Shown: positions 1 to 52,302, numbered from the stretch's first letter. The stretch: DNA of 64,000 nt from Alcanivoracaceae bacterium (GCA_029212745.1 JARGOL010000005.1:27558-91557), one strand, 5' to 3'. Program-made: numbers and translations. The notes: generated by a model not told the origin, from the sequence alone.

Positions 1-63
1 CAGCCCGCGGCCGGGCTCCCAGGGCAAGGGAAACAGATTGCTGACGAACAGGAGTCGCTTCAT
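1..63 (-). CDS. glycosyltransferase (GT4-like), N-terminal fragment; gene runs off the left edge
   Basis: ATG at 63..61 forms an ATGA overlap with the stop (62..60) of the upstream GT gene. The reverse complement of 1..63 reads MKRLLFVSNLFPLPWEPGRGL, a typical GT4 N-terminus. It is too short for the ORF track. Confidence 0.45.
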   Translation of the reverse strand, partial: MKRLLFVSNLFPLPWEPGRGL

Positions 64-3702: not shown

Positions 3703-3707
3703 CACGG

Positions 3708-5021: not shown

Positions 5022-6058
5022 GCACCAGCCTCCAGCGCCTGCCAGCTGCGCGAACGTGACAGCAATGAACGCAGTGTGCGGCCGTACAGATGGGTGGCCG
5101 GTACCAGCAGGTGACTGACCGGCGTCTGGCGACAGCCAAACCGGGCTTTCCAGGAGCCGGGCTCGCCCTTCATGAAATCGTACTCCCTGATTCCAGAGAC
5201 GATGGCATCCTCGATCATGCTCACATGCAGGGCGATGCCGGGTGAGAAACCCGACTGGGCACCATCCATGCCTGACTGGTAGAAAAGCCGGGTACCATTG
5301 AAGTCAAACCCGTACCACGCTGCCACCACCTCATCATCACGATAGAGCAGCGCCAGTCGCGCCGGCACCGACGGATCGGCCAGCACTGACTGGTGAAAGT
5401 CGAGGAAACGCCGGGCGCTGAATACGCCGGCCTCACCGCGCTGGCGCCAGCGCGACTGATGCAGGGACACCAGTGCCGGCAACGCCGCAAGCCGCTCGGC
5501 CGGTGCGCGGGCAATGTGCAGGTGCATCTGCTCACGGGTCATGCGCTGGCGGGTACGCCGGACCTTGCTGCGAAAACTGTCAGAGAGACCCGCCAGCCAG
5601 TCATCCAGTGTCGCCGGCAACGGCAAGCTGTAACGCACCCCGCATGGCTGGCTGAAACCACCCGCATGACGGGCGAGGTTCTCCACTGATGAACCCCGCA
5701 GACAATTATCAAACCGGCACAGGTCCCACGGCAGCCGGCCAAGCGCTGACCAGGTATCAGCCGGCGCTGGTTGCAGGACGCCATCGGACAAGTCACAGAA
5801 TTCCGGGCACAACTCCTCCGGCTCGGCATCGCCGGTGCCCGCAAAACGCAATGTCCGCACCGGCACACCCGGGCGCAGCCACCGGCGACGGATGTACAGC
5901 GGCAACAGGGCATCACTGCGGGCAACGAAACGATCGCCGCGATGCTGGTAGTGCGTACGCCAATGCTGCAGCCAGGCCGGCGTCTGGAAAACGGCCGGCC
6001 CCGAGCCTTCCAGCCATGCCTGCCGGTCACTTGCGCTGACGGAAAGAGACAGGCTCAT
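5018..6058 (-). CDS. FemAB-related / CelD-BcsL type GNAT acyltransferase
   Basis: The ATG at 6058 makes an ATGA overlap with the upstream stop. The C-terminal part reads LLYRDDEVVAAWYGFDFNGTRLFYQSGMD ... IREYDFMKGEPGSWKARFG, typical of Acetyltransf_6/FemAB-like proteins of PEP-CTERM loci. Confidence 0.75.
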   Translation of the reverse strand: MSLSLSVSASDRQAWLEGSGPAVFQTPAWLQHWRTHYQHRGDRFVARSDALLPLYIRRRWLRPGVPVRTLRFAGTGDAEPEELCPEFCDLSDGVLQPAPADTWSALGRLPWDLCRFDNCLRGSSVENLARHAGGFSQPCGVRYSLPLPATLDDWLAGLSDSFRSKVRRTRQRMTREQMHLHIARAPAERLAALPALVSLHQSRWRQRGEAGVFSARRFLDFHQSVLADPSVPARLALLYRDDEVVAAWYGFDFNGTRLFYQSGMDGAQSGFSPGIALHVSMIEDAIVSGIREYDFMKGEPGSWKARFGCRQTPVSHLLVPATHLYGRTLRSLLSRSRSWQALEAGA

Positions 6059-7335
6059 CGCAACTGCACCCGCAATGCCAGCCACACACTGGTATTGGTG
6101 TACTCGGCCTGTTCTTGCGTGCTGCTCCTGCCGAGCCAGCCTGTTCCAGCGGTGAGTTCGGTACGTGTATTGAGCAGCCGCGTGGCCGTCACCGTTGCCT
6201 CGCTGTCCCGGTCCACCCGGCCATCATCAAGGAACTCGCGCCGCGTGCTGCTCAGGGCACAACTGACAAAGCCGGTGTCAGCCTCGTAGAGGCGGGTTAC
6301 CAGGCGCGTACCGCGTTCGTCAGAGTCGCGCCGTGTGACACCGCGATCCAGGTAGCGGCGTTGCTTGCCCCAGACAGACACCAGCGGGTCGAGGACAGCA
6401 CGCGAGCCACTGTAGGTCAGGGCGGCACTGCGCTGGCGGTAGGCACCTGTGCCTTCAATGCCGGCCACCAATGTGCCGTTGGCAAGGCTTTCCAGGTCAC
6501 TCGCCTCGTCGCTGAATTCCTGGTTGGCGGTAACAACCAGCTGGCGGTCGGCGGACACCATCCAGTTGGCCCGAAAGCGGCCGACGTCGCTCTGCTCCGG
6601 GTCAAAGCCCTGCTCCTTGAGCCAGCCTTTGCCGGCCTCCAGTGACAGGCCACTGCGCATACCGCGATAGCTGAAGCCAGCAACAGCCTGACGTGTGCGG
6701 TAATCCGGAAAGTTGCCGCTGTATTCCGTGGCGCTGTAATCGACACGGGCGAACACCTGCAAACGCTGCCGTGGCTGCCGCGTCAGGTTGGCAGAACCGG
6801 TATTACGGAAGTAACGCTCGTCCCCACTGACAATACGCTGGCGCCGCCCGGACAGGACAAGGGCATTCAGGTCACCCAGACGCAGTCGCGCAGTGGGGCC
6901 CGTGCCCAGCAGCCGGACCGTTTCGGAGTTACTGTCGATATTCGGTGCTGCAGGATCAACCACCTGGACGGATTCCACATAGTCCACATTCCAGTCAAGC
7001 ATTTCCGGCTGCAACAACCAGCGGAAATTGCCCACCGCTTCCGCATCGAATTGTCCATCCAGCAACTGGTGCTGGTACTCCTGGTAATTGAACGCACCAT
7101 CAAGGGCCCAGGTATATTGCTCACCCTGCTGCTGCCCGCTGGCCTCCAGCCGGGAGCGGTAAACCATGCCCGAGCGTGGCTCATCATTGCTGGCGGTAAC
7201 ATTGCTCTGGTACTCGGTAAACAGGCTACCCGCAACCCTCAGGGGCACCTGGCTTTCCGATGCGCTGGCTACAGCACAAACCACCAGCAGGCCTGCGGCG
7301 AGTAGTCCCTGCATCCCTGCGAGTTTCCGCTGCAT
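6055..7335 (-). CDS. putative outer-membrane beta-barrel protein of the EPS locus
   Basis: The internal ATG at 7335 gives the signal peptide MQRKLAGMQGLLAAGLLVVCAVASASE. The rest is a long alternating-polarity, Tyr/Arg/Ser-rich sequence. Position between the kinase-like and FemAB-like genes matches PEP-CTERM-associated barrel proteins. Confidence 0.55.
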   Translation of the reverse strand: MQRKLAGMQGLLAAGLLVVCAVASASESQVPLRVAGSLFTEYQSNVTASNDEPRSGMVYRSRLEASGQQQGEQYTWALDGAFNYQEYQHQLLDGQFDAEAVGNFRWLLQPEMLDWNVDYVESVQVVDPAAPNIDSNSETVRLLGTGPTARLRLGDLNALVLSGRRQRIVSGDERYFRNTGSANLTRQPRQRLQVFARVDYSATEYSGNFPDYRTRQAVAGFSYRGMRSGLSLEAGKGWLKEQGFDPEQSDVGRFRANWMVSADRQLVVTANQEFSDEASDLESLANGTLVAGIEGTGAYRQRSAALTYSGSRAVLDPLVSVWGKQRRYLDRGVTRRDSDERGTRLVTRLYEADTGFVSCALSSTRREFLDDGRVDRDSEATVTATRLLNTRTELTAGTGWLGRSSTQEQAEYTNTSVWLALRVQLR

Positions 7336-10493: not shown

Positions 10494-11162
10494 TTGTCGT
10501 ACAATCAACGTTCGGAGCGCCCCTTCTTGGATTATCTGCACTGTTACCGCGTGCTGGAACTGGACGCAGACAGCAACTGGGAGACAGCACGCAGACACTA
10601 TCGCACACTGGCGTCGCGTCATCATCCGGACCGTCCCGGCCACGACACCAGCGGGCCGTCCCAGGCAGAGCTGAACAGGGCCTATGGCCTGTTGCGGGAC
10701 TACTACCAGCAGCACCAGCGATTACCCCTGCAGAAAACCGCGACGCCGAGCACGCCGTTCCGCCCTGGCGCATCTCCGGTGCACCGCACACCAGCCAGGG
10801 CGGCACAGCCACGGAGATGGACACGCAATATCCTGCGCCTTGGCATTGCCGGCGCCGCGGCCGTCGCGATTCTTGTGTTCTGGCCCGATCAACCGGGCAG
10901 GCAACCCGAGCAGGCACGTTCACCTGCGGTATCCCTGACCACCACAGAGGCAGAGGAAACACCGGTGATCCGGTTGGGTGATCGCCTCGGCCATGTGGCC
11001 CAGGTCCTCGGCCCACCAAGGGACACCCGCAATGATCGCTGGTACTATGGCGACTCGTGGATAGAGTTCAGGGACGGACGCGTGGCGAACTGGTATTCCT
11101 CCGTAGACACTCCCCTGCCTGTCGACCTGATCAGCATCAGCGATGGAACACCCAAACAATGA
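10494..11162 (+). CDS. membrane-anchored J-domain (DnaJ-like) protein
   Basis: The J-domain reads YRVLELDADSNWETARRHYRTLASRHHPDR ... AELNRAYGLLRD, including HPD. It is followed by a Pro-rich linker, a TM helix ILRLGIAGAAAVAILVFW, and a short W/Y-rich C-terminal domain. The frame has no in-frame ATG, so the start must be TTG (10494 or 10527). Confidence 0.7.
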   Translation: MSYNQRSERPFLDYLHCYRVLELDADSNWETARRHYRTLASRHHPDRPGHDTSGPSQAELNRAYGLLRDYYQQHQRLPLQKTATPSTPFRPGASPVHRTPARAAQPRRWTRNILRLGIAGAAAVAILVFWPDQPGRQPEQARSPAVSLTTTEAEETPVIRLGDRLGHVAQVLGPPRDTRNDRWYYGDSWIEFRDGRVANWYSSVDTPLPVDLISISDGTPKQ

Positions 11163-12151
11163 CCAAGCAGGCTTTCCTCGCCGGCTGCCTTGCCAGACTG
11201 GGCATTCTTCGCCTGATGATCCGGCGGCAACACAAACGCCTGCCGGTTCTGGCTTACCACCGCATCCTTGACGACGACAGTGATCCGGCAACATTGGCGG
11301 ACCCTGGCCTGTTCAGTGCCACGGCCAGCTCGTTTGATGCGCAGATGGCGCTGGTCTCGCGTCACTTCAATGTCATCACCCTGGCACGGCTGCTTGATCC
11401 GGCACCGCTACCGCCACGCCCACTGGTGATTACCTTTGATGACGGCTACGAGGATAACTACCGTATCGCGTATCCGATCCTGAAAAAGCATGGCCTGCAC
11501 GGTGTCTTTTTTGTTACCACCGGCTTCATCGATGACGGCCAGCCATTGTGGTTCGACCAGGTCGCCATCCTGCTTGACCAGTCCACCCTGCCGCACACCC
11601 TGGACGTGGCAGGTCGCCGCCTGCTGCCCCATGCGTTACCGCGCCAGCAGCTGGTGCAGCAGGTGCTGGCGCACCTGAAGTCGCTCACCGCCGAGGCCCG
11701 CCAGGCCGAAATCAAGCTACTGGAACGGCAGACCGGCAACCCCCGCATTGCCGCGGGCACCCCCATGACCTGGGCCCAGTTGCGGCACATGGCCGACAAC
11801 GGCATGGAGATCGGCTCGCACTCGCGTTCCCACAGTGTTCTTGCCAACGAAACCGCAGGTACCATCACGGCGGAGCTTGCCGAGTCACGCCAGCAGATCT
11901 GTGAGCAACTGCAGCGCGACTGCGTATCCGTGGCCTATCCGGTGGGCGGCACCAGCGCCGTCAATGACCAGGTCCTGCACGCGGCCAGGGAGTGCGGTTA
12001 CGGCATCGGCTGCACCTACCTGTCGGGCATCAACCGGCTGCCATTGCGGGACCCGCTGGCCCTGGTGCGTGTGCATGTGGAACTGGACGTGACGCTGGCA
12101 CAGTTTTATGCCCAGCTGGCGCTGCCTGACCTGTTCGGGTACCGCCACTGA
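11159..12151 (+). CDS. polysaccharide deacetylase (NodB/CE4 family)
   Basis: The ATG at 11159 makes an ATGA overlap with the J-domain gene stop. Motifs LAYHRI, ITFDDGYEDNY and GSHSRSH are present. Confidence 0.85.
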   Translation: MTKQAFLAGCLARLGILRLMIRRQHKRLPVLAYHRILDDDSDPATLADPGLFSATASSFDAQMALVSRHFNVITLARLLDPAPLPPRPLVITFDDGYEDNYRIAYPILKKHGLHGVFFVTTGFIDDGQPLWFDQVAILLDQSTLPHTLDVAGRRLLPHALPRQQLVQQVLAHLKSLTAEARQAEIKLLERQTGNPRIAAGTPMTWAQLRHMADNGMEIGSHSRSHSVLANETAGTITAELAESRQQICEQLQRDCVSVAYPVGGTSAVNDQVLHAARECGYGIGCTYLSGINRLPLRDPLALVRVHVELDVTLAQFYAQLALPDLFGYRH

Positions 12152-13662
12152 TGAAACGGGCAAGCGCGCTACGCAATACGGCCCACGCGACACTGGCCAC
12201 CTGGACCGAATTCTTCCTCGGCATGCTGGTGTCGATCACCATCGCCCGCAGCCTGGCACCGGATACCTATGGCCACTTCAGTTTCATGATGTGGTGCGCC
12301 GCCGTGTTTGTGGTATTCGGTAACGGCGGCCTGACAACAGCGATCATCAAGTTCATGGCAGAGGCCGGCCTTGATGAACGGGGCGCCACCTATCGCTATC
12401 TGGCGCGACTGCAACTCGGCGCCCTGGCTGCTGCCTGTGCCATCGTGCTTGTGGGCGCACAGCTGCAGCCGGCCTTCTTTACCGCCACAGCCGACACCAG
12501 CCTGTGGCTTGCATTGCTGGCCGCCAGTGCGCTGAAAGCCAGTTACATCTTCCGCATGTCGGCGAGCAAGGGACTGGAAGACTTCAATGCCATTTTCAAG
12601 GTGGTACTGGTGGTCGCCCCGGCCAATCTCGCCGCCGCCCTGCTGGTGGCGCTGTGGCAACCCTCGTTGCAGAACTTCGTGCTGGTCTATCTGCTCACCT
12701 GCGCTCTCTACCTGGTGATGATGCAACTGGTGCAACGTCATCAACGCCCCGTCGCACCGCTGTCACCACAATTGCGCCAGCGCATCTGGCGGCACCTGTG
12801 GATCACCAGTGTCAGCATCATTCTTTCCTTCCTGGTGCTGAAACAGTCGGAGGTGTTTTTCCTGCGGTTGTACGCCAGTGCCGAAGATATCGGCTTTTTC
12901 AATATCGCATTTACCCTGGGTTTCGCCCTGTCTGCCTTGTTTCCGGGGGTCTACAGCGCCCTGCTGCTGCCGATGATGTCACGCCAGTCAGCGGGCGCGC
13001 ATGGCCAGCGGGCACAGACACTGCACACCTCGGTGCGTTACCTGCAACTGCTGGCCTGGCCCATGGTGCTGGCAACCCAGGTGCTGGGCGGTGCGCTGGT
13101 GGCGGTGCTCTATGGCAGCGCCTATGAATCGGCCGCGCTGGCGCTGATGTGGGTCATCGCTGGCGTTGGCATTGCCGCTGTGGGTCAGGCCGGTGTCAGC
13201 CAGCTGGTCAGCAGTGACCGGCAAAATGTGGTGCTGCGCATCAACGTGCTGGTGGCGATAGCGGTACTGGCCATGGACTGGTGGGCCATACGTCACTGGC
13301 AGCTCAGCGGCGCAGCCGTGGCATTTGCTGTTGGCAACGCCGTGCATGCAACCCTCATGCTTCGCCTGGCCCTGCTCAGCTGTGCCACGCGCTGGCAGTG
13401 GATGCCCACGTTCAGGACGCTGCTGGCAGCATCCGTCCCGGCGCTTGTTACCTGGCCACTGGTGATTGGGCTGGACAGGGTTGGCGGGCCGTTGTTATCA
13501 CTTCTGCTTGGCGCACTTTGCTACACCCTGCTGTTCATCCCAACGACCCTGCTTTGCGGTTGCTGGACGGCCGGGGAGATTGATCAGCTGCACGCTCTTG
13601 CCGGCCGTCTACCCGCCCCCCTGCGGGCGCCAGTACGCATGTTGCTGGCTGTTCGCAGATAG
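12151..13662 (+). CDS. Wzx-type polysaccharide flippase (MOP superfamily)
   Basis: 503-aa protein with about 12-14 TM helices. TGATG overlap with the deacetylase stop. Confidence 0.8.
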   Translation: MKRASALRNTAHATLATWTEFFLGMLVSITIARSLAPDTYGHFSFMMWCAAVFVVFGNGGLTTAIIKFMAEAGLDERGATYRYLARLQLGALAAACAIVLVGAQLQPAFFTATADTSLWLALLAASALKASYIFRMSASKGLEDFNAIFKVVLVVAPANLAAALLVALWQPSLQNFVLVYLLTCALYLVMMQLVQRHQRPVAPLSPQLRQRIWRHLWITSVSIILSFLVLKQSEVFFLRLYASAEDIGFFNIAFTLGFALSALFPGVYSALLLPMMSRQSAGAHGQRAQTLHTSVRYLQLLAWPMVLATQVLGGALVAVLYGSAYESAALALMWVIAGVGIAAVGQAGVSQLVSSDRQNVVLRINVLVAIAVLAMDWWAIRHWQLSGAAVAFAVGNAVHATLMLRLALLSCATRWQWMPTFRTLLAASVPALVTWPLVIGLDRVGGPLLSLLLGALCYTLLFIPTTLLCGCWTAGEIDQLHALAGRLPAPLRAPVRMLLAVRR

Positions 13663-42513: not shown

Positions 42514-43770
42514 TCAGGAACAGATGCGCAGCAGGTGGGTGATCAGGTCCACCTGGCGATTGAAATTGTTTTTCTGCAGCAATGACTTGATGTTGGTGCG
42601 CACCGTACTGACGGCGAGATCCAGCTCCCTGGCTGCCTGGGCGGCATCTGCGCCCTTGACCAGCGCCAGGCACACCCGTGCCTCGGCTTCGGTGGCAGTG
42701 ATGACCTTGCGGATCTCCGTAGTGGTGGGCGTGCGCACATCGTTGGGGTCAAAGATTTCCACCAGCGTGGTGTTGTTGTCGTTTTCCCGGCTGTGTACAG
42801 GCGTGATGGAGAAACGCAGGGGCAAAGCATTGGTGTGCAGGTACAGCGTGTCGGTCTCATCCAGGGCCGATGTCTTGCCGGTAATGAACAGCATCAGCTG
42901 GGTATAGAATTCCTGCGCAAAGGCCGGGTCCTGGAACTCGATCTGCCGGGTATCGTGATTGACCCGAAACACCTCATAACGCTGGCCGATCTGCTCGAAC
43001 GCCGGGCTCGCGCTGATCAGCAACGACACCGGCGAGAACACCGCCACCGGCTGCTTCAGCACGGCAATGCTGCTTTTCAGGTCACGGAACACCTGCTCGG
43101 AGCGATGCAGGCGCTCATACAGGTCCAGCGCAATCTCGGTGTGCTTCTTCAGCCGCGCCAACAACGCCATCTCGTCGCGGCTGAACACGGCATGGGACTT
43201 GTGTCGGTTCAGCACCAGCACGATCTGGTGCTGGAACTTGTTGGTGAAGGCAATGGTGGCACTGTCGACGATGCCGGCGGCGCGCAACCAGGTACGGGAA
43301 AACGCCGACATGTCAGCCAGCACATCATGCTCGGGGTCACCATCGGCATAACTGAAAACGGCGTTGGGCCCCAGCGCCAGGGCCCGGGCAATGGCCTCAT
43401 CCTTGAACACCAGCCCGGTCTTGAGCATCAGGGGCACGACGCCAGGCGGATACCCGAGCGCCCAGCCGTACAGGCCCTTGAGCTCAGGCTCCTTCTGGAT
43501 CACTGCCAGTGAGCAGCTGGCCAGAGTCAGCTCCTCGCGCAGGCAGCGCAGGAAGGGATCGAACCCCTGGTTGTTCTCGACACAGCCATACAGGCTCGTT
43601 ACCAGACGATCAAAAGTATCGGTCTGAGTATACACAGCATCGAGCAGCTCAGGCTCAGCTGGCTGGTCGTCGGCGGAAACAACGGGAGCGGGTTGTGGGC
43701 GATTATCCGGTGGCATTCTACTTCTCGTTGGATCTGATAAAACGCCGAGGCCGCTGGGCGGCACAGGCAT
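42514..43770 (-). CDS. LuxR-family transcriptional regulator with uncharacterised N-terminal domain
   Basis: The C-terminal HTH is TEAEARVCLALVKGADAAQAARELDLAVSTVRTNIKSLLQK. An alternative ATG lies at 43716. Confidence 0.75.
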   Translation of the reverse strand: MPVPPSGLGVLSDPTRSRMPPDNRPQPAPVVSADDQPAEPELLDAVYTQTDTFDRLVTSLYGCVENNQGFDPFLRCLREELTLASCSLAVIQKEPELKGLYGWALGYPPGVVPLMLKTGLVFKDEAIARALALGPNAVFSYADGDPEHDVLADMSAFSRTWLRAAGIVDSATIAFTNKFQHQIVLVLNRHKSHAVFSRDEMALLARLKKHTEIALDLYERLHRSEQVFRDLKSSIAVLKQPVAVFSPVSLLISASPAFEQIGQRYEVFRVNHDTRQIEFQDPAFAQEFYTQLMLFITGKTSALDETDTLYLHTNALPLRFSITPVHSRENDNNTTLVEIFDPNDVRTPTTTEIRKVITATEAEARVCLALVKGADAAQAARELDLAVSTVRTNIKSLLQKNNFNRQVDLITHLLRICS

Positions 43771-43856
43771 CAGACTTTTTTATTAGCTGAAAGAGTAGCC
43801 AATGCCGGGGCGGGTATCCAGTAACCGTGCCAAAACTGCGTCTCGCTTCAGCTGTA

Positions 43857-43880
43857 CAAAAACGGGCAAGCCCGGTTTTC
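43857..43880 (-). terminator. possible intrinsic terminator after the last cassette
   Basis: On the minus strand the sequence reads AAAACCGGG-cttg-CCCGTTTTTG, immediately after the stop at 43881. Confidence 0.45.
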
Positions 43881-44255
43881 CTATTCCAATCGGCCTATCT
43901 CTGTACGGAGTACATCGTCGATTAACTGCCTCAATGAGGCTGGAAGGTGGCCTGACTGATCTTCAAAGACACCATGAAGCGGCGTCAACTGACACGGCAC
44001 TTGCTGCCGTAAAACCGGAGAGCGTGAATAACCGCCGGGGTTATCACCGGGCTCAACCTCATAACACGCCAGGCGGCCTCCGCTTTTCCACAGGCACAGC
44101 TTCTCTGTGCGTTGCTTGTCGTACGACAGCTGGAAAGAAATGATGCGACCGCTTGCGTCATACCAGACGAACAGATCCAGCATAGGAGACTGGTACCATT
44201 CTCTTTTTGAAGGGCCGTCTTCGGCGGGGCTCTGATGTATTCTTCTGAGCATCAT
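43881..44255 (-). CDS. cassette ORF, hypothetical protein (124 aa)
   Basis: ORF in cassette position directly 3-prime of the attC at 44261..44321. No family was recognised. Confidence 0.55.
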   Translation of the reverse strand: MMLRRIHQSPAEDGPSKREWYQSPMLDLFVWYDASGRIISFQLSYDKQRTEKLCLWKSGGRLACYEVEPGDNPGGYSRSPVLRQQVPCQLTPLHGVFEDQSGHLPASLRQLIDDVLRTEIGRLE

Positions 44256-44260
44256 TCGGA

Positions 44261-44321
44261 AGATAACGTCGCAAACAGGGGCGCCGGTTACGGCGTCCCC
44301 TCTTGCTCTGCCTTGTTATGA
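44261..44321 (-). repeat. attC-like recombination site
   Basis: aGATAACGTCGCAAACAGGGGCGCC-ggtta-CGGCGTCCCCTCTTGCTCTGCCTTGTTATGa. The upstream ORF reads into it. Confidence 0.75.
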
Positions 44322-44737
44322 CAGGGGCGCGCCGGGACTGGCTTGCGGTAATAGTGCCCATTGATTTCGCCATCAAGCGAAGTTGTTGAGAGCGAGCAGT
44401 CAGTGATTTCAGATACTTTGTCTTTCCGCACGGTCCCATCACGCCACTTCAAGATGAGGATTTCATCCTTCAGGGACCACTCACCACCCGTTGATTCGCT
44501 CTCGACATGTCTCCCTTCGCTGAACACTGCGATGCTGAAATTCCCGTCGGCCTTGAGTTCCATTTTCCAAATACTTTCACTTCCCATTGAAAAATACCAT
44601 GCCCCGAGGATCTCATGTGTATTAATCGCCTTCTCAGCACTGCAATCCATGAAACTGCCATGATTAACCGTGGCATCAGATGCATAGCCAAAGCAAGGAA
44701 ATAGCACAGCCAAGATTAGGATAAGGAGTCTTTTCAT
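44288..44737 (-). CDS. cassette ORF, small exported protein (149 aa)
   Basis: The internal ATG at 44737 gives the signal peptide MKRLLILILAVLFPCFGYA. The long ORF-track version would overlap the neighbouring cassette and its attC. Confidence 0.6.
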   Translation of the reverse strand: MKRLLILILAVLFPCFGYASDATVNHGSFMDCSAEKAINTHEILGAWYFSMGSESIWKMELKADGNFSIAVFSEGRHVESESTGGEWSLKDEILILKWRDGTVRKDKVSEITDCSLSTTSLDGEINGHYYRKPVPARPCHNKAEQEGTP

Positions 44738-44744
44738 ATTCTCA

Positions 44745-44796
44745 TCACGTCGCGAGCAGGGGCGCCAAAGGCGTCCTCTGTAGCGCCTTGCTAGGT
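44745..44796 (-). repeat. attC-like site with degenerate cores
   Basis: TCACGTCGCGAGCAGGGGCGCC-aaa-GGCGTCCTCTGTAGCGCCTTGCTAGG. The cores are TCAC/GCTA instead of TAAC/GTTA. The stop of the upstream ORF lies in the outer core. Confidence 0.6.
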
Positions 44797-45264
44797 GACG
44801 CTTATCAGGCCTAGGCCATCCAATCCCAGAGCTATTGCAGTCACTACGATAACAAAAAGCACCATCCCCAGAATACTTATCCCGAATACCTTCCAGCCCG
44901 ACTGAAAATCCAAATTTTCGGACTCCAAAACGTCCTGCTTGGATGGCTGCGTTTTGTTGGCAAGCCATACTGTAGGCACCAAGTAGAGAACCGGAATTAC
45001 ATTATTCGGAAAGTCTTCTGGTAGATAGACCACCAAAAACGAAAAACACAGAATGAATAGCCCGCCTACAGTCAACGCCATCCTCGATAATCTATACATT
45101 TGGAGGGCGTCAAAGTTGGCCTTCAAGAAATATACTGCGGCGAAAGGTCCGCCGATAAATGTGCCCAATCCAATCTGCATCGGTGAATAGACTGAGGCTG
45201 TAACTTCTGCGTTAGGACTAGAATCAATCTCTGCCTGTGGGGCGTCATATGCATTTCTATTCAT
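44791..45264 (-). CDS. cassette ORF, small integral membrane protein (157 aa)
   Basis: The protein has about 4 predicted TM helices and an ATG start. Confidence 0.6.
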   Translation of the reverse strand: MNRNAYDAPQAEIDSSPNAEVTASVYSPMQIGLGTFIGGPFAAVYFLKANFDALQMYRLSRMALTVGGLFILCFSFLVVYLPEDFPNNVIPVLYLVPTVWLANKTQPSKQDVLESENLDFQSGWKVFGISILGMVLFVIVVTAIALGLDGLGLISVT

Positions 45265-45287
45265 TTTTTCTCTTCGCTCTTTTGTCC

Positions 45288-45368
45288 TAACGCTCGCACC
45301 AAGGGCGCCCGCAGCAACGCGGATGGCGTCACGCCGCGCTTTTCGCGGCGTAATTCCTGCGCGTGTTA
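45288..45368 (-). repeat. attC-like site (long variant, about 81 bp)
   Basis: TAACGCTCGCACCAAGGGCGCC ... GGCGTCACGCCGCGC-ttttc-GCGGCGT ... GCGCGTGTTA. Confidence 0.6.
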
Positions 45369-45372
45369 TGAA

Positions 45373-45831
45373 TTACCTGCACCTAACGAAATACTCTCTA
45401 ATATTTAAATTTGAAAACATGGAGCTGTGCCCCGCAACGTACACCCACATAATATCTTGGCCCTCGAAGTGATAGGTAACTATTAGGTCAGACCCATCTA
45501 GATCCTGGGTTTTTACCACGACTGTGTCCTTGTCCTGGCCGAGAATCGTATAGGTTGATTCCTCTGTAAATCCTTCGAAGGTTGATTTTTCACCATCTGA
45601 ATGTACTTCAATAGAGGGCATGTTGAGCTTCGATACTCCGTCCAAAAATTCGATCGTCATATGCCCCATAAGTTGATCGAAAAATATTCTCTGGCGCTCT
45701 TCGAGAATCGCATTACGGTTATTGAACCCGGAGGTCAATTCTTTATTGGACCTCCACTTCCCTTCAATTGATGCCGCATGGGCGTCGCTAGCAACTAAAA
45801 AAAACAATAGTGCAAAGAAGATAGGCCTCAC
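45373..45831 (-). CDS. cassette ORF, small exported protein (152 aa)
   Basis: GTG start with a GAGGGG RBS. The signal peptide is MRPIFFALLFFLVASDAHA. Confidence 0.6.
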   Translation of the reverse strand: MRPIFFALLFFLVASDAHAASIEGKWRSNKELTSGFNNRNAILEERQRIFFDQLMGHMTIEFLDGVSKLNMPSIEVHSDGEKSTFEGFTEESTYTILGQDKDTVVVKTQDLDGSDLIVTYHFEGQDIMWVYVAGHSSMFSNLNIREYFVRCR

Positions 45832-45850
45832 TGGAACCCCTCAGTACTAA

Positions 45851-45905
45851 TAACGTCGCAAACAGGGGCGCGCTTGAGCGTGCCCCCGCTTGCTTTGCCT
45901 TGTTA
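45851..45905 (-). repeat. attC-like recombination site
   Basis: TAACGTCGCAAACAGGGGCGCGC-ttga-GCGTGCCCCCGCTTGCTTTGCCTTGTTA. The TAA stop of the upstream ORF is the TTA of the GTTA core. Confidence 0.8.
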
Positions 45906-46301
45906 ATTCTCATCGCCCATTATGTTCGCTCTGACGGTTTCCATGAAAACTCCCCGCATCATCGTTCGATTAGTCGGGTTTCTCATGAAACCCTGCATCC
46001 TCAAAAGTAGACCTGGACGCAACCTGGGCTTCTCATTCTCAATGTACATTCCGAGCTTGGATAGCATGGCCATATTATCAGGGGACCCGTCCATCTTTGC
46101 TGCCCCAGTAAAGGCAACAAGTATGAATGTTTCGAAGTCCATATCGCCTTCTTCAAAGACATTCTTCGTCTGCTCAAGGACTTTCGGGCTTTCTATCTGC
46201 TTATCAAGAAAATCTTCAAGTCGCACGTCTAAATCAGCTGCTAATACTGAATCAGCTGAGCCAATCCATAACACTAATAATACAAAAATCGGCCGGATCA
46301 T
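45903..46301 (-). CDS. cassette ORF, small exported protein (132 aa)
   Basis: The signal peptide is MIRPIFVLLVLWIGSADSVLA. Confidence 0.6.
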   Translation of the reverse strand: MIRPIFVLLVLWIGSADSVLAADLDVRLEDFLDKQIESPKVLEQTKNVFEEGDMDFETFILVAFTGAAKMDGSPDNMAMLSKLGMYIENEKPRLRPGLLLRMQGFMRNPTNRTMMRGVFMETVRANIMGDEN

Positions 46302-46313
46302 TATCGCCCCAAA

Positions 46314-46372
46314 TCAACGCCAAGCTAAGCGGCTGCCTGGAAGGCAGTCCGCGCATTTCAGCGACTTGTTAT
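46314..46372 (-). repeat. attC-like site (divergent sequence family)
   Basis: TCAACGCCAAGCTAAGCGGCTGCC-tggaa-GGCAGTCCGCGCATTTCAGCGACTTGTTAT. The stop of the upstream ORF lies in the GTTA core. Confidence 0.6.
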
Positions 46373-46743
46373 GCGTGAATCTCAAACTGAACCTCTCCGC
46401 CAACTATTTTTACTTGCCCAAAGTCACCAGATATTATGAAGCCGTCGGCAGTTTTTTCTAACTGGTCAATATTGCCATAATCTATGGAGCCATCCGGGTC
46501 CCTCGTGAATGGACTCTGTTCCTGGGCGCGCAAACCAGTAACTGACTCAAAGCCAAAAAACCTTAGGCTGGCTCGTCGGTAACACGTGTATTCATTATTC
46601 TTTGGTTCATAGTAGTAGCGAGAGGCTGGCCAAACGCTGGCCTCCAAGTCAAACAGGAGGCTTCCACTCTCCTGGATCCAACCAAAAACAAAAGAGTCAT
46701 TTAGGTCGATGCCTTCGAAAGTGGGCATTTCCGTCCAGTTCAT
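46369..46743 (-). CDS. cassette ORF, cytoplasmic hypothetical protein (124 aa)
   Basis: The protein has no signal peptide and is acidic and aromatic-rich. Confidence 0.55.
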   Translation of the reverse strand: MNWTEMPTFEGIDLNDSFVFGWIQESGSLLFDLEASVWPASRYYYEPKNNEYTCYRRASLRFFGFESVTGLRAQEQSPFTRDPDGSIDYGNIDQLEKTADGFIISGDFGQVKIVGGEVQFEIHA

Positions 46744-46756
46744 CGCAATTCACACA

Positions 46757-46810
46757 TAACGCCGCCAACAGGGGCGCCTGTAAGGCGTCCCCGCTTGCTT
46801 GGCCTTGTTA
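46757..46810 (-). repeat. attC-like recombination site
   Basis: TAACGCCGCCAACAGGGGCGCC-tgtaa-GGCGTCCCCGCTTGCTTGGCCTTGTTA. The stop of the upstream ORF lies in the core. Confidence 0.8.
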
Positions 46811-47125
46811 ACCAACCTGAATCTCCTCGAGCTCAGTTGGCGGCACGGTAGTCATGGAAACCATGGCCTGGCCGTTGGTCAATGGGACTCCGATGGCATA
46901 CAAGCCCTGCTTAGTGCCTGCCGTGAAGTACATCTGCTGCTGGCCATCCTTGCTCAAGTAAAAGCCGATCAATTTAAAATCGTGTTCATAGAACGGCTCT
47001 TCGTCTGTTCCCTCGAAATCCTCGGGCGGGTAGGTGCCGTATTCCAGATTGAAGTAGTCAACGAAGTCCTTCCCCTCGAGAGACGGTCTTCCTTGAAACT
47101 CATTGCACTCTATAAGTTCGTCCAT
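46808..47125 (-). CDS. cassette ORF, acidic hypothetical protein (105 aa)
   Basis: ATG start with an AGGGGT RBS. No signal peptide. Confidence 0.55.
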   Translation of the reverse strand: MDELIECNEFQGRPSLEGKDFVDYFNLEYGTYPPEDFEGTDEEPFYEHDFKLIGFYLSKDGQQQMYFTAGTKQGLYAIGVPLTNGQAMVSMTTVPPTELEEIQVG

Positions 47126-47138
47126 CGATACCCCTGGT

Positions 47139-47193
47139 TAACGTCGCAAACAGGGGCGCGCCTTGGCGCGTCCGCGCTTGCTTTGCCTTGTTA
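47139..47193 (-). repeat. attC-like recombination site
   Basis: TAACGTCGCAAACAGGGGCGCGCC-ttg-GCGCGTCCGCGCTTGCTTTGCCTTGTTA. Confidence 0.8.
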
Positions 47194-47196
47194 TGG

Positions 47197-47547
47197 TTAC
47201 TCGCACGGCTTTGACTCTGCGAGAAATTCGCAAAACGCCAGCCGGCGATGCCTCACTATCACATCTGGCACTTCCTCGCTCATAATAGCGCGCCGTGCCT
47301 GATCCTTAAGCAAAGCACCCTCAATCATGGCTAGTGCGTTATGAAGCTCACAAACGCCCAAGTCGGCTCCGTCCGAGAGAGATTGCTGCAATGTGTCGAA
47401 ACTCTCTCTCGCAGAGGCTTTGGAGAAATCACTCTCGCCCCAAGCGAAAGCGTTTCCCTTGCCTTCATTTGCACCCTCGCAGATTGGCCCCGCAATTCCC
47501 GCAAGCGGAATAAAAATAATGCAAAGAACGACGCATCTATATTTCAT
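47197..47547 (-). CDS. cassette ORF, small exported protein (116 aa)
   Basis: The internal ATG at 47547 gives the signal peptide MKYRCVVLCIIFIPLAGIAG. Confidence 0.55.
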   Translation of the reverse strand: MKYRCVVLCIIFIPLAGIAGPICEGANEGKGNAFAWGESDFSKASARESFDTLQQSLSDGADLGVCELHNALAMIEGALLKDQARRAIMSEEVPDVIVRHRRLAFCEFLAESKPCE

Positions 47548-47617
47548 CCGAACAATCCATAACAGTGTATTAGGCCGAACGGTTCGGCCTATCCAAAGTT
47601 CCGCTATTTCCCTGCAG

Positions 47618-47650
47618 TAACATAGCGTCGCCAACAAAAGGGGCGGTATT
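47618..47650 (-). repeat. half attC (inner L-prime/R-prime-like arm only)
   Basis: GTAACATAGCGTCGCCAACAAAAGGGGCGG matches the TAACGTCGCAAACAGGGGCGC arm. The partner arm (CGCTTGCTTTGCCTTGTTA type) is absent. Confidence 0.55.
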
Positions 47651-47852
47651 ACAGTGAGTTAGCTTCCTCTGGGCAATATCCTACACCAGTGAATCCGGCC
47701 ATGTCGTGATTGGCGGTGTCCGGCGAGAATGACGGCAAACTGATATCAGCTTAAGCAGGCCAACGGTAAATCAATGCGTTAACGGCTCTCCGGCCAGATG
47801 ATAGCGCAATAACCGGCCTTTTCCTGTGAGCACGCAGATAACGGTGTCGCCC

Positions 47853-48644
47853 TCAATCCTGCGAGACGGTCCTGGGCCAACCCATATAGATTGACACTGT
47901 GCTGTCCAGCCCACTGGTGACCTGGCGGAATTCCCAATGGAAATCAGTATCAATGCCCTCCACCAGCGCCTCGAAATCCTCTCGTGTGTACATGCGCACG
48001 ATGCTGACCAGGCCGTCCCAGGTGGCCATCAGGGGAATGAGTGGAATTAAATAGGTGAACAACGCCTTGAGCAGGCGATCCTGTTTGCTGAGAAAAGGAT
48101 TGAGGAAGTTGGCAGCCACGAAGTACACACCCATATGCAGGGCACCGCGCCCTTTGCGGGTCATGGGCTCCATAATGAAGATGGGTTTTCCCTTTTTCGC
48201 ACTGTCTTCAAGAATGCGCCGCGCCAGCGCCGGCGGAAAGTGATGGAAAGCACTGACCACCATCCGGCCGCCATGTGCATACACCGCCGGCACATCGGTA
48301 GCATCCAGCGGGCTGCTGATCACCTCGATATGGTCAGGGTGTTTGGAAGCGGCTTGTGCCATGTGATGCACAACAGGGAACAGGTCAGAGACCATAAAGC
48401 GTGGCAACTTGCCGCCACTGTCTTTCAGGGCTTCCAGCATTGCGGCGGCTGGCTCACCAGAGCCGCTGCACAGGTCCAGCACGGTATCGTTTTCCAGGCG
48501 GTTGAAGAATTCGCCGAACACCGGCGCTGCCGTCTTGCACACACCGCTCCAGCGCATGGCATTGCCCAGGCTCTCCACCACGGAATCACGCAGTACTCGC
48601 GGTGTCTGCGGCAGGTCCATAAATTCGAATGCCTGAATCCTCAT
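47853..48644 (-). CDS. class I SAM-dependent methyltransferase (small-molecule type)
   Basis: AAGGAG RBS. Motif I is VLDLCSGSGEPAAAMLEAL. No DNA-methyltransferase DPPY/NPPY or PC motifs are present. Confidence 0.8.
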   Translation of the reverse strand: MRIQAFEFMDLPQTPRVLRDSVVESLGNAMRWSGVCKTAAPVFGEFFNRLENDTVLDLCSGSGEPAAAMLEALKDSGGKLPRFMVSDLFPVVHHMAQAASKHPDHIEVISSPLDATDVPAVYAHGGRMVVSAFHHFPPALARRILEDSAKKGKPIFIMEPMTRKGRGALHMGVYFVAANFLNPFLSKQDRLLKALFTYLIPLIPLMATWDGLVSIVRMYTREDFEALVEGIDTDFHWEFRQVTSGLDSTVSIYMGWPRTVSQD

Positions 48645-48797
48645 GACTTTCTCCTTGGCTGATCAACAGGGAGAGTGTCGCCGCTCTGGCATACGTAGCG
48701 GTAGGCATATCGTGACAGCACACGGCCCTTGGCCAGAATTGCGCCGGGATTGGCGTTAACAGTGTGGGCGACAGCCACTTGCGCGGCTGCCTCGTGC

Positions 48798-48872
48798 TCA
48801 GATCTCGCGGGTTTCACGGAAACGGATCTCCGGGTGGCGCTCTTTCGCCAGCCCGAGGCGGACCCGCGCAGT
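48798..48872 (-). pseudogene. orphan duplicate of the last 24 codons of prfC
   Basis: The coding strand reads [23 protein letters not shown]-stop. The live prfC ends [23 protein letters not shown]-stop at 50725. There is no upstream reading frame or start. Confidence 0.85.
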
Positions 48873-50724: not shown

Positions 50725-52302
50725 TCAGATCTCCCTTGTCTCTCGGAAACGGATCTCCGGATGACGCTCTTCCGCCAGCCCGAGGTTGACGCGGGTGGGC
50801 GCCAGGTAGGTGAGGTTGCCGGCGCCGTCTTCGGCCAGGTTTTCATAGGCCTTGTCGCGCAGCTTGTCGATATCGCGCTCGTTGTCGGCCTCTACCCAGC
50901 GCGCGGTGTAGACGCTGATGGGCTCGTAGTTGCACTCCACGCCGTATTCCGCCTTCAGGCGGTGGGCCACCACATCGAACTGCAGCATGCCCACGGCACC
51001 GAGAATCAGGTCATTGTTCTTCAGCGGCATGAACACCTGGGTGGCGCCCTCTTCCGCCAGCTGGGTCAGGCCCTTGTGCAGCTGTTTGCTCTTCAGGGGG
51101 TCTTTCAGCACCACACGGCGGAACAGTTCCGGGGCAAAGAACGGGATGCCGGTGTAGCGCAGCATTTCGCCCTCGGTGAAGGTATCGCCCACCTGGATGG
51201 TGCCGTGGTTGTGCAACCCGATGATGTCACCGGCAAAGGCCTGCTCCACGTTCTCGCGCTCGCCGGCGAGGAAGGTGAGCGCGTCCGAGATGCGCACGTC
51301 CTTGCCGGTGCGGCACTGGTGCATTTTCATGCCCTTGCGGTATTCCCCCGAGCAGATACGCAGGAACGCCACGCGGTCGCGGTGCTTGGGGTCCATGTTG
51401 GCCTGGATCTTGAAGACGAAGCCGGTGAATTTGTCTTCGTCCGCATCCACATGGCGCTCTTCGGAATCGCGGCCAGTGGGGCACGGCGCCCACTCCACCA
51501 GGCCATTGAGCATATGGTCGACGCCGAAGTTGCCGAGCGCAGTGCCGAAAAAGCACGGGGTCAGCTTGCCGGCCAGGAACTCGTCCTTGTCGAACTCGTG
51601 GCTGGCACCCTGCACCAGCTCCAGGGTCTCGCGCAGCTCGTCGGCATAGGCGCCCACGGCGGCATCCAGGTCCGGGTTGTCCAGGCCCTTGATCTCGCGA
51701 ACGTCCTGGATGGTGTGGCCCTGGCCGCTCTTGTACAGCACCGTGGTGTCGGTGAGCAGGTTGTACACGCCCTTGAATTCCTTGCCCATGCCGATGGGCC
51801 AGGTGATGGGCGAGCACTTGATCTTCAGCACCTCTTCCACCTCATCCAGCACTTCGATGGGGTCGCGCACGTCGCGGTCGAGCTTGTTGATAAAGGTTAG
51901 GATGGGCGTATCACGCAGGCGGCACACCTCCATCAGCTTGATAGTGCGCTCTTCCACACCCTTGGCGCAGTCGATCACCATCAGGGCCGTGTCCACTGCC
52001 GTCAGGGTGCGGTAGGTGTCTTCCGAAAAGTCGGCGTGGCCCGGAGTGTCCAGCAGGTTCACGGTGGCGTCGCGATACGGGAACTGCATCACCGAGGTGG
52101 TCACCGAGATACCCCGCTGCTTCTCCATCTCCATCCAGTCGGAGGTGGCATGGCGGCCCGACTTCTTGCCCTTCACCGTGCCCGCCATCTGGATGGCATT
52201 GCCATACAGCAGCATCTTCTCGGTGATGGTGGTTTTACCGGCATCCGGGTGCGAGATGATCGCGAAGGTGCGCCGTTTCCTGATTTCGTCGAGCAGGGCC
52301 AT
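50725..52302 (-). CDS. prfC: peptide chain release factor 3
   Basis: The ATG at 52302 gives [25 protein letters not shown]. GTPase G1-G4 motifs are present and similarity to RF3 runs the full length. Confidence 0.93.

Follow-up and report, generated by a model that had tools for sequence, protein, structure and literature searches.

Seven attC-bounded cassettes form an array at positions 44264 to 47563 of the 64-kb window (the whole stretch of DNA that was analyzed) on an Alcanivoracaceae chromosome. The region is very probably an array of integron gene cassettes without an integrase gene in cis, i.e., a CALIN. Its sites belong to the attC class, and its cassettes are discrete units bounded at the crossover between AA and C. 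Between two strains with 96 to 99% identical flanks, the content of the array was wholly different. The array is a genuine but ordinary example of a kind that is already known, and it leaves the current understanding of integrons unchanged. It adds a well-documented integrase-less cassette array from the Alcanivoracaceae, which include marine hydrocarbon degraders.

The array has a GC content of 49%, compared with 61.7% for the window, in line with the impression gained from the sequence alone that the block is AT-richer than its flanks. The arms of the sites recur in the array. The 5' arm AACGTCGCAAACAGGGGCGC was present in five copies at three or fewer mismatches, with a chance expectation of 0.00 in the 64-kb window, and the 3' arm GCTTGCTTTGCCTTGTTA in four copies, with a chance expectation of 0.06 in the same window. 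All copies of both arms lay on the + strand, inside 44.2 to 47.2 kb of the 64-kb window.

Seven attC sites in one orientation

The whole 64-kb window was searched on both strands, with filters off, using the covariance model R2, which was built from 69 sites in the arrays of other genomes and served as a surrogate for IntegronFinder's attC model. Rfam holds no attC family. The following sites were obtained.

44264..44318, + strand: attC A, of cassette c2 (R2 match 44261-44321, 64.9 bits, E 3e-14)
44745..44798, + strand: attC B, of cassette c3 (R2 match 44742-44801, 24.4 bits, E 8e-4; R1 31 bits)
45288..45368, + strand: attC C, of cassette c4 (R2 match 45285-45371, 21.8 bits, E 4e-3; TAAC...GTTA termini)
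45851..45905, + strand: attC D, of cassette c5 (R2 match 45848-45908, 58.9 bits, E 1e-12)
46315..46371, + strand: attC E, of cassette c6 (R2 match 46312-46374, 36.5 bits, E 6e-7)
46757..46810, + strand: attC F, of cassette c7 (R2 match 46754-46813, 67.8 bits, E 5e-15)
47139..47193, + strand: attC G, of cassette c8 (R2 match 47136-47196, 64.7 bits, E 3e-14)

Exactly seven matches were found, all on the + strand, with E values from 5e-15 to 4e-3 (next best, 0.61); the four strong matches are partly circular because the R1 and R2 models stem from a pattern in the window's own repeats, for the two weakest sites, whose E values of 8e-4 and 4e-3 are roughly calibrated, position and termini carry most of the weight. 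Thus, the model gave significant matches at all seven palindromes of the sequence-only reading and none elsewhere in the window, and the palindromes were located within a few bases of where they had been placed. CALIN clustering calls for at least two attC sites less than 4 kb apart on one strand. Here, seven + strand sites were clustered with a start-to-start spacing of 382 to 563 bp (R2 matches).

At all seven sites, the + strand is the attC bottom (recombinogenic) strand, in the same orientation. Termini of the form (T/C)AAC...GTTA were found at six of the seven sites. The divergent attC E has CAAC...GTTA and scored only 14.7 bits with the narrow family model R1, and attC B departs from the cores ascribed earlier to every palindrome, its R box being mutated to TCAC/GTGA in place of TAAC/GTTA (CAC/GTG, with CAC for the conserved AAC). 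attC B is probably a poor recombination substrate or none. The weakest of the seven, attC C, is 81 nt long, carries an extra internal hairpin, and lies between ORFs. The TAAC of attC A (44264-44267) is the distal limit of the strain-variable region. attC D folds with an energy of -14.5 kcal/mol (z = -2.9), attC F has a compensatory stem variant (GCCAAC/TTGGC), and attC G combines TAAC...GTTA termini with bulges that all lie on the 3' arm. Four to five of the seven attCs form one homogeneous family.

The extended consensus of attC bottom strands is RYYYAAC/GTTRRRY, with an R box formed by AAC (R') and GTT (R'') (PMC5027507); beyond TAAC/GTTA, this 7-mer consensus was matched only loosely or in part. 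In the consensus structure of the sites, the R box is flanked by 2-nt spacers, the terminal loop is variable, and the + strand is bulged at three places, each on its 3' arm: at a T and a C that are both conserved and at a variable segment of 3 to >20 nt. This agrees with the attC hairpin, whose extrahelical bases are confined to the L'' side of the bottom strand. Bulged bases on one arm are the asymmetry that would let IntI choose the bottom strand.

The stem was further analyzed in the 69 sites from other genomes, in which 14 of the 21 stem pairs showed compensatory changes. In the 69-site alignment, paired cells reached 93.5%, compared with 36 to 53% in slid controls. The covariation score was 0.44, compared with 0.04 to 0.07 in slid controls, in an alignment that was itself fitted to the model; an independent MAFFT alignment (A1) gave 3 covarying pairs. 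The R box was without covariation across the 69 sites, with a single pair type and few unpaired exceptions.

Cassette ORFs

As the sequence alone had indicated, each palindrome lies just 3' of a small minus-strand ORF, and this is true of all seven.

47197..47547, - strand: cassette c8 ORF, 116 aa, signal-like N-terminal segment; gene also called on L001
46808..47125, - strand: cassette c7 ORF, 105 aa, 90% protein identity to L004:2627-2944
46369..46743, - strand: cassette c6 ORF, 124 aa, no family match
45903..46301, - strand: cassette c5 ORF, 132 aa, signal-like N-terminus; no family match
45373..45831, - strand: cassette c4 ORF, 152 aa, GTG start, signal-like N-terminus; no family match
44791..45264, - strand: cassette c3 ORF, 157 aa, hydrophobic; no family match
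44288..44737, - strand: cassette c2 ORF, 149 aa, signal-like N-terminus; ends within the attC A loop

The product of the c3 ORF is probably a membrane protein. None of the eight small ORFs (the seven cassette ORFs and ORF1, at the distal end of the array) matched any Pfam family. NCBIfam likewise gave no above-threshold match for the eight, the single sub-threshold match being that of the c2 ORF to TIGR03066 (18 bits versus a cut-off of 93). Family-less ORFs are usual in chromosomal cassettes.

Stop codons had been assigned to the core in five of seven cases, and this count was too high: only three ORFs (45903, 46369, and 46808) stop at the TTA of a GTTA core. Of the others, one has a TAG (44791) next to a degenerate core, one stops within the attC loop (44288), and two stop 3 to 4 nt outside the core (45373 and 47197). 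The start codon was 7 to 23 nt from the upstream core in seven of the ORFs, which preserves the close spacing described earlier and replaces its range of about 8 to 50 nt.

Integrase, attI, and promoter

No similarity to IntI was detected in the whole 64-kb window by tblastn with the TIGR02249-verified IntI of locus L005 (best E = 4), and no integrase was found there by a box II motif scan. For integron integrases, this agrees with the remark that no tyrosine recombinase is visible. Neither an intI gene nor a relic of one was present in the 43 kb on one side of the array or in the 16 kb on the other, and 12.8 kb of the sister strain L036 likewise had no intI. In addition, upstream of the array, the minus strand had no predicted sigma-70-like promoter. 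attI sequences are class-specific, without a generic search pattern. A complete integron has a divergent adjacent intI, an attI, and a Pc; here, the position that intI has in L005 is occupied by the methyltransferase and prfC genes. The definition of a CALIN excludes an intI gene inside 4 kb and an intI pseudogene inside 10 kb (Cury et al. 2016, NAR 44:4539, PMC4889954). As no integrase gene or relic lies in the window, the array falls under this definition.

Array ends and comparison with sister strains

The features at the two ends of the array were as follows.

47853..48644, - strand: methyltransferase, 263 aa, upstream flank, co-directional with the array and conserved in the sister strain
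47618..47650, + strand: half attC, consisting of an R'-L' arm that has small insertions and lacks its partner
47560..47606, + strand: proximal junction (TAAC 47560-47563, 7-nt spacer, 9-bp hairpin 47571-47591, GTTC)
43881..44255, - strand: ORF1, 124 aa, beside the LuxR-type gene, without its own attC
42514..43770, - strand: LuxR-type HTH regulator, downstream flank (GerE 19.6 bits, below the 23.5 cut-off)

The sister strain L036, with flanks 98.7% and 95.6% identical to the window, has eight cassettes with eight attC matches between the same two TAAC junctions. No variable cassette was common to the window and L036. The breakpoints of L036 were the TAACs at 47560 and 44264, and strain L033 had the same distal breakpoint; homology to L033 and L036 was about 96% up to the TAAC of 44264 and degraded beyond it. 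The comparison of related genomes, which had been proposed as a check, revealed the presence, absence, and replacement of cassettes exactly at the attC crossover points.

At the proximal end, the window and the sister strain part exactly at the TAAC of 47560-47563 (alignment A4, blast). The junction folds with -9.2 kcal/mol (z = -2.7), and its hairpin is retained in L036. The segment 47560-47606 would be a putative attI-like or mini-attC-like docking site. The half attC is 73% identical to the 5' arm, forms no hairpin, and is kept in L036.

The array does lie wedged between a LuxR-type regulator and a methyltransferase. The names of its distant homologues place the methyltransferase in the class I SAM-methyltransferase family (PF13649 on some), and a 73% homologue lies inside a cassette-like array with attC matches in L023-L026. 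The orthologues of the LuxR-type regulator are 400 aa long and have names that indicate an HTH luxR-type domain; the true start of the regulator is probably 43716, giving 400 aa. A 69-bp duplication of the prfC 3' end represents another insertion downstream of prfC.

At the distal end, the R2 search found no attC site 3' of ORF1. A terminator-like hairpin with a T-run lies 3' of ORF1 on the minus strand (about 43853-43879). The only homologue of ORF1 was P0134 (94% identical), and its position next to the LuxR-type gene is syntenic in L033, L034, L035, and L036 (95 to 96%). ORF1 is either a distal flank or a fixed former cassette. Since it is without an attC, has the terminator-like hairpin, and is conserved in relatives, the locus comprises seven cassettes and one flank or fixed ORF. 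Thus, seven of the eight cassettes proposed earlier stand as attC-bounded units, and the eighth ORF does not.

The attC family and its cassettes in other genomes

When 185,579 species genomes were scanned for TAACGYCGCNAACAGGGGCGC, 21 loci emerged, almost all of them in marine Gammaproteobacteria of diverse kinds. The full hairpin was present at 18 of the 21 loci, and most of the loci were in same-strand multi-site arrays. That the TAACGYCGCNAACAGGGGCGC attC family is common to many marine genera of this class is consistent with a shared cassette pool. One locus, L005, on a Halomonadaceae chromosome, encodes an integron integrase (TIGR02249, 405 bits versus a cut-off of 265) and has seven attC matches on the expected strand and side, one of them 93% identical to attC G.

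The DNA of cassette c7 has a homologue in L004, also from the Alcanivoracaceae. Window positions 46757-47143 correspond to L004 positions 2575-2963, which is exactly one cassette; the homology stops at both TAAC crossover points, and L004 has another type of attC upstream. Because c7 occurs in a different array context in L004, single cassettes move in this clade. With c7 in L004 and other cassettes departing from the same junctions in L033 and L036, the cassettes behave as discrete mobile units. No match to the array was found among 72,556 plasmid records.

Origin of the array

Each cassette consists of a minus-strand ORF that lacks a promoter and, on its 3' side, an attC of its own, with the + strand bottom strands folding into hairpins. 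An IntI tyrosine recombinase may have built the array, either one that is encoded elsewhere in the genome and acts in trans or one that was lost recently; remodelling by IntI is probably still ongoing, by exchange that would involve the attCs and the GTTA junction (47560-47563) conserved at the proximal end. The cassettes could be transcribed by read-through from the co-directional upstream prfC-methyltransferase genes, and transcription would end at the terminator after ORF1. A working secondary platform of this kind, in which 47560-47606 docks cassettes for an IntI encoded elsewhere and expression comes by read-through from prfC, is a tentative and rather unlikely explanation. If true, it would explain the full replacement of the array between strains with 96 to 99% identical flanks. 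Alternatively, whole arrays could have been exchanged by homologous recombination through the conserved flanks, with no local IntI activity behind the strain difference.

Such recombination is part of another explanation, possible if somewhat doubtful, in which the array is an inert remnant of a sedentary chromosomal integron with intI and attI deleted, and whole arrays are swapped through their flanks after DNA uptake. The lack of intI in the 64-kb window and in the 12.8 kb of L036 fits this explanation, as does the half attC, which occurs in both strains and points to an old breakpoint inside an attC. One attC (B) has a mutated AAC core, the two strains share zero variable cassettes, as a block swap predicts, and most CALINs are without nearby intI pseudogenes (PMC4889954). 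However, the breakpoint at either end coincides exactly with a TAAC core, and a block swap would need donor arrays built at the same site. In addition, intact AAC/GTT cores and good hairpins at six of the seven attCs, together with the occurrence of c7 in a different array context, argue against an inert array.

Growth of the array at a secondary attG-type site downstream of prfC, with cassettes supplied by an integron elsewhere and a locus that never had intI, is an unlikely origin. Around the proximal junction, the conserved DNA is not of integron type apart from a bare GTTA, and the duplicated prfC 3' end (69 bp) attests a further insertion downstream of this gene. Insertion outside att sites has been shown experimentally (bioRxiv 10.1101/2022.09.11.507474) and is among the origins that Cury et al. 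give for CALINs (PMC4889954). Nevertheless, the conserved half attC, 58 nt upstream of the junction, suggests an older, longer array that has since been truncated, and the upstream methyltransferase has a homologue among attC sites in other genomes.

Finally, that the palindromes are ordinary REP/BIME elements or intergenic terminator hairpins unrelated to integrons is highly improbable: they are GC-rich and imperfect, lie between convergently packed small genes, and include one caught by a simple terminator scan on the non-coding strand, but all seven share one orientation, their TAAC/GTTA termini are constant while the stem covaries, the hairpins have no T-run behind them on the coding strand, the same family occurs in arrays beside a verified IntI, and homology breaks at the cores. 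Copies were confined to 44.2-47.7 kb of the 64-kb window, on one strand only, without the scatter expected of REP/BIME elements, and such an identity is effectively refuted. The refuting tests named with the CALIN-like reading were all carried out in one form or another, and none overturned the interpretation.

Relation to known integrons

The array shows no essential difference from published CALINs, with its sites called here by a surrogate model. In both, no intI lies within 4 kb and no pseudogene within 10 kb, and the cassettes are mostly of unknown function; no resistance gene is present here. Published CALINs have a mean of 5 sites, and 83% have fewer than 6 (PMC4889954); with 7 sites, the array is near this mean. 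The half attC and the conserved hairpin-plus-GTTA junction lie outside the CALIN definition. CALINs outnumber complete integrons in genomes (279 versus 164; PMC4889954). With both boundaries mapped to the base and a strain pair with total cassette turnover, the locus is a convenient CALIN test case, and it bears on two questions, servicing in trans and the nature of the insertion site.

Mobile class 1-5 integrons have the ORF-attC unit and the R-box crossover logic in common with the array. Unlike them, the array has no resistance genes, intI, transposon context, or plasmid match, and whereas mobile integrons reside on plasmids and transposons, it is chromosomal, between prfC/methyltransferase and the LuxR-type regulator.

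The sedentary chromosomal integron of Halomonadaceae bacterium KBTZ08 (CP182108, L005) has the same attC family, up to 93% identical. In sedentary chromosomal integrons (L005, Vibrio superintegron type), as here, the bottom strands and the ORFs are on opposite strands, and cassettes of 380-560 bp, mostly ORFans, occupy a fixed chromosomal site with strain-variable content. In contrast, the array is short (7 sites), is without a recognizable attI or Pc, and has neither the adjacent intI nor the LexA-box-like palindrome that L005 carries in the intI promoter region. GC skew suggests that the attC bottom strands here lie on the leading-strand template, as they do in 25 of 30 sedentary chromosomal integrons (PMC5371416).

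Organization of the cassette array

Between 43.8 and 47.65 kb of the window, eight small minus-strand ORFs of 105 to 157 aa each were separated by imperfect palindromes on the + strand. The GC content of this block was 49% versus 61.7% for the window, which agreed with the AT-richer composition noted in the sequence-only reading.

Features of the array (window coordinates)
43881-44255, minus strand, ORF1, without an attC of its own
44264-44318, plus strand, attC A
44288-44737, minus strand, c2 ORF
44745-44798, plus strand, attC B
44791-45264, minus strand, c3 ORF
45288-45368, plus strand, attC C
45373-45831, minus strand, c4 ORF
45851-45905, plus strand, attC D
45903-46301, minus strand, c5 ORF
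46315-46371, plus strand, attC E
46369-46743, minus strand, c6 ORF
46757-46810, plus strand, attC F
46808-47125, minus strand, c7 ORF
47139-47193, plus strand, attC G
47197-47547, minus strand, c8 ORF

The upstream core and the cassette start codon were separated by 7 to 23 nt. ORF1, which starts 8 nt from attC A, is followed on the coding strand by a hairpin and then a T-run. Four related contigs retain ORF1 beside the LuxR-type gene, and it represents either the distal flank or a cassette that became fixed long ago. A relic attC was sought 3' of ORF1 (43815-43880), where neither a fold nor a match to R2, the broader of our two attC covariance models, was obtained. Because ORF1 has no attC of its own, the array consists of seven attC-bounded cassettes plus ORF1 rather than the eight cassettes first counted. 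Likewise, only three ORFs, and not five, use the TTA of a GTTA core as the stop codon (45903, 46369, and 46808).

None of the eight proteins was matched in Pfam (0/8), and the NCBIfam search gave a single match, far under its cut-off. Exact-protein look-ups for c7 and the LuxR-type ORF returned no match. No tRNA gene marking an island was found in the whole window.

Identification of the palindromes as attC sites

The 5' arm AACGTCGCAAACAGGGGCGC occurred in five copies with ≤3 mismatches and the 3' arm GCTTGCTTTGCCTTGTTA in four copies, with chance expectations of 0.00 and 0.06, respectively, for the 64-kb window. All arm copies were on the + strand and confined to 44.2-47.2 kb. A search of the whole window with Rfam at gathering thresholds returned nothing, as Rfam is without an attC family. 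When xAAC...GTTx hairpins were ranked by folding energy, 21 and 27 candidates were obtained on the two strands, mostly intragenic; this approach was useless in this GC-rich DNA and was dropped in favor of covariance models.

The seed pattern TAACGYCGCNAACAGGGGCGC, taken from the window repeats, was scanned against 185,579 species (one genome each). It was found at 21 loci, of which 18 had the complete hairpin. Almost all of these loci belong to marine Gammaproteobacteria, among them Dasania, Thalassolituus, Alcanivorax, Alloalcanivorax, Marinobacterium, Simiduia, Arenicella, Bermanella, and a Halomonadaceae chromosome. A narrow family model, R1, was built from 19 full copies at these loci, the window being left out of the training of both models. 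At the same loci, R1 detected 69 sites at an E of <1e-3, typically in same-strand arrays with a spacing of 300 to 1100 bp (10, 8, and 7 sites at loci L019, L018, and L022, respectively). However, R1 was too narrow, since two divergent window sites scored 14.7 and 11.3 bits and were inseparable from noise. Thus, the model was broadened by iteration on other genomes alone, with the 69 sites as the training set of R2.

With R2 as a surrogate for an attC covariance model, run on both strands of the whole window with filters off, exactly seven matches were obtained, all on the + strand, with E values from 5e-15 to 4e-3; the next best had an E of 0.61. These matches coincided with the seven palindromes previously proposed as attC sites, and no other match in the window was significant. 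Across the 69 sites, compensatory changes were present in 14 of 21 stem pairs, and 93.5% of the cells were paired versus 36 to 53% when the partner was slid by 1 to 3 columns, in an alignment that was itself fitted to the model. An unfitted MAFFT alignment showed the same trend, with three covarying pairs. The R box (TAAC/GTTA) showed no covariation across the 69 sites.

The consensus structure comprised an R box of 4 to 5 bp, unpaired 2-nt spacers, and a stem with three bulges, namely one conserved T, one conserved C, and a segment of variable length (3 to >20 nt). On the + strand, all three bulges were in the 3' arm. In published attC sites, the bottom strand carries RYYYAAC in R', GTTRRRY in R'', and extrahelical bases on the L'' arm, together with an unpaired central spacer and a variable terminal structure (PMC5027507). 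The structure fits this anatomy, and thus the + strand is the attC bottom strand; as expected from this orientation, the cassette ORFs were on the minus strand. The sites are of the attC class. Site B (44745-44798) reads TCAC...GTGA, with the conserved AAC and GTT absent, and is probably inactive; if so, c3 and c2 would form a single fused unit.

At window 44288-44318 and at positions 1296-1326 of a complete Halomonadaceae integron (L005), unrelated cassette ORFs both run into the same attC family and end in near-identical peptides (...NKAEQEGTP* and ...NKAKQEGTR*, respectively). Thus, read in that frame, this attC supplies cassette proteins with a conserved C-terminal tail.

Absence of an integrase from the window

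L005, from Halomonadaceae bacterium KBTZ08 (CP182108), encodes a 322-aa protein that scored 405 bits on TIGR02249 "integron integrase" (cut-off, 265). Seven R2 matches lie to the left of intI on the + strand, with the ORFs on the minus strand. This geometry, the same as that of the window array, supports the comparison, and one of the L005 attC sites was 93% identical to window site G. When the L005 IntI was used as a tblastn query against the 64-kb window, the best E was 4, and a box II motif scan of the window found nothing. Thus, no integrase gene or recognizable relic lies within 43 kb on one side and 16 kb on the other. The locus is a CALIN-type cassette array (a cluster of attC sites lacking an integron-integrase), and the earlier description of an integrase-less, CALIN-like array was correct in substance. 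A distant-mode search of a plasmid collection gave no match, and no plasmid or known mobile-integron relationship was found. In a 2016 survey, CALINs numbered 279 versus 164 complete integrons.

Just upstream of the L005 intI start codon, the palindrome TACTGTATATAAATACAGT (3841-3859) looks like a LexA (SOS) box. Such boxes have been described for many integron integrase promoters.

Cassette turnover between strains

Cassette c7 had a homologue in another Alcanivoracaceae MAG (L004:2627-2944), with 90% protein identity and 85% DNA identity. The DNA homology spanned window 46757-47143; its two ends were the TAAC of the c7 attC and the TAACG of the attC next upstream, and the L004 attC upstream of the homologue was of an unrelated sequence type. 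A 1.2-kb related contig (L033) matched the window at ~96% identity over the LuxR-type gene and ORF1, as far as the TAAC of attC A, after which it carried a different attC family member and then an unrelated cassette.

A 234-kb sister-strain contig spanning the whole locus (L036, MRWG01000141.1) was obtained from a metagenome scan with a 37-mer of ORF1. Its positions 1-6327 corresponded to window 53886-47560 (98.7% identity) and 10627-12811 to window 44318-42131 (95.6%). The 4.3-kb interval between these flanks contained eight small ORFs different from those of the window, all in one direction, together with eight R2 attC matches. None of c2 to c8 was found in L036 (0/7), and no IntI similarity was found in the 12.8 kb of this contig that were searched. 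The proximal breakpoint directly followed top-strand ...CCTAATACACTGTTA, corresponding to the TAAC on the + strand at 47560-47563. Both breakpoints are on TAAC cores, and thus the variable region is 44264-47563. It holds seven cassettes in the strain of the window; the sister strain has eight, all of them different. These three comparisons show the cassettes to be discrete, exchangeable units that end at the crossover points, in an array whose content changes from strain to strain between conserved flanks. Two points go slightly beyond the routine: the mapping of both array boundaries to the base, and the replacement of every cassette between two strains at a locus without its own integrase.

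This turnover is probably due to an IntI whose gene is at another place in the genome, or was lost only recently, and which would excise and insert cassettes via the folded + strand attC sites. Alternatively, homologous recombination in the conserved flanks could swap whole arrays. GC skew was negative in each 8-kb bin of window 1-64000 (-0.04 to -0.075) regardless of gene strand, which suggests that the whole window is on one replichore, with lagging-strand composition on the + strand, and that the + strand is the leading-strand template. The attC bottom strands would then have the placement seen in 25 of 30 sedentary chromosomal integrons, which reportedly limits excision (PMC5371416).

Upstream of the array, no sigma-70-like promoter was predicted for the coding strand, and the cassettes are co-directional with prfC and the methyltransferase gene. 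Given also the short gaps between cores and start codons, the simplest model would be read-through transcription from these two genes, ending at the hairpin after ORF1.

Array flanks

The downstream flank gene encodes a LuxR-type HTH regulator, as first assigned. Its orthologues in Alcanivorax sediminis, Alcanivorax sp. S6407, and a metagenome scaffold were not syntenic and thus allowed no presence/absence comparison.

Upstream of c8, a half attC (47618-47650) consists of the 5' arm only, with no hairpin. At 58 nt from it, the array junction reads TAAC, a 7-nt spacer, a 9-bp hairpin (47571-47591), a 6-nt spacer, and GTTC. Both elements were kept in L036. The half attC suggests an older array truncated here, and the junction, undetected by R2, looks like a putative minimal attC or attI-like site. 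Pairing of the half attC with 47811-47836 as a ~220-nt methyltransferase attC was rejected as unproven, with a fold z of +0.54 versus shuffled sequences and a would-be R'' reading TAAC, not GTTA.

The upstream 263-aa protein was identical to an already named protein, and its more distant relatives carry the name class I SAM-dependent methyltransferase, making the original annotation reasonable. A 73% homologue was present in four Logan contigs (L023-L026), in a row of small genes that share its direction, with attC matches (e.g., 1669-1725 and 459-557 in L023 1-5800), attC 3' halves visible upstream of the methyltransferase gene, and one gene position differing between contigs (349, 285, or 171 aa). 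From this setting, the methyltransferase gene may itself be a former or circulating cassette.

The 64 kb contain exactly two copies of the motif TAACAGTGT, both on the + strand (chance expectation, 0.11; two matches reached in 2/100 shuffles). The copy at 47560-47568 is the proximal array junction and that at 48757-48765 lies 33 nt downstream of the relic prfC stop, so that the pair brackets the methyltransferase gene and the half attC. It could mark an old insertion site or be a coincidence.

A 69-bp direct repeat (84% identical) was located at 48798-48866 and 50725-50793. On the right, the repeat forms the 3' end of prfC (RF3), with its final 22 codons and the stop; on the left, it encodes the same C terminus but is isolated, with a 176-aa gene on one side and the methyltransferase gene on the other. 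Three genes (223-aa lipoprotein-like, 166-aa SnoaL-like, and 176-aa membrane protein) and no integrase are present in the intervening 1.93 kb, which looks like an integrase-less islet inserted into the prfC 3' end. This islet was also present in the sister strain.
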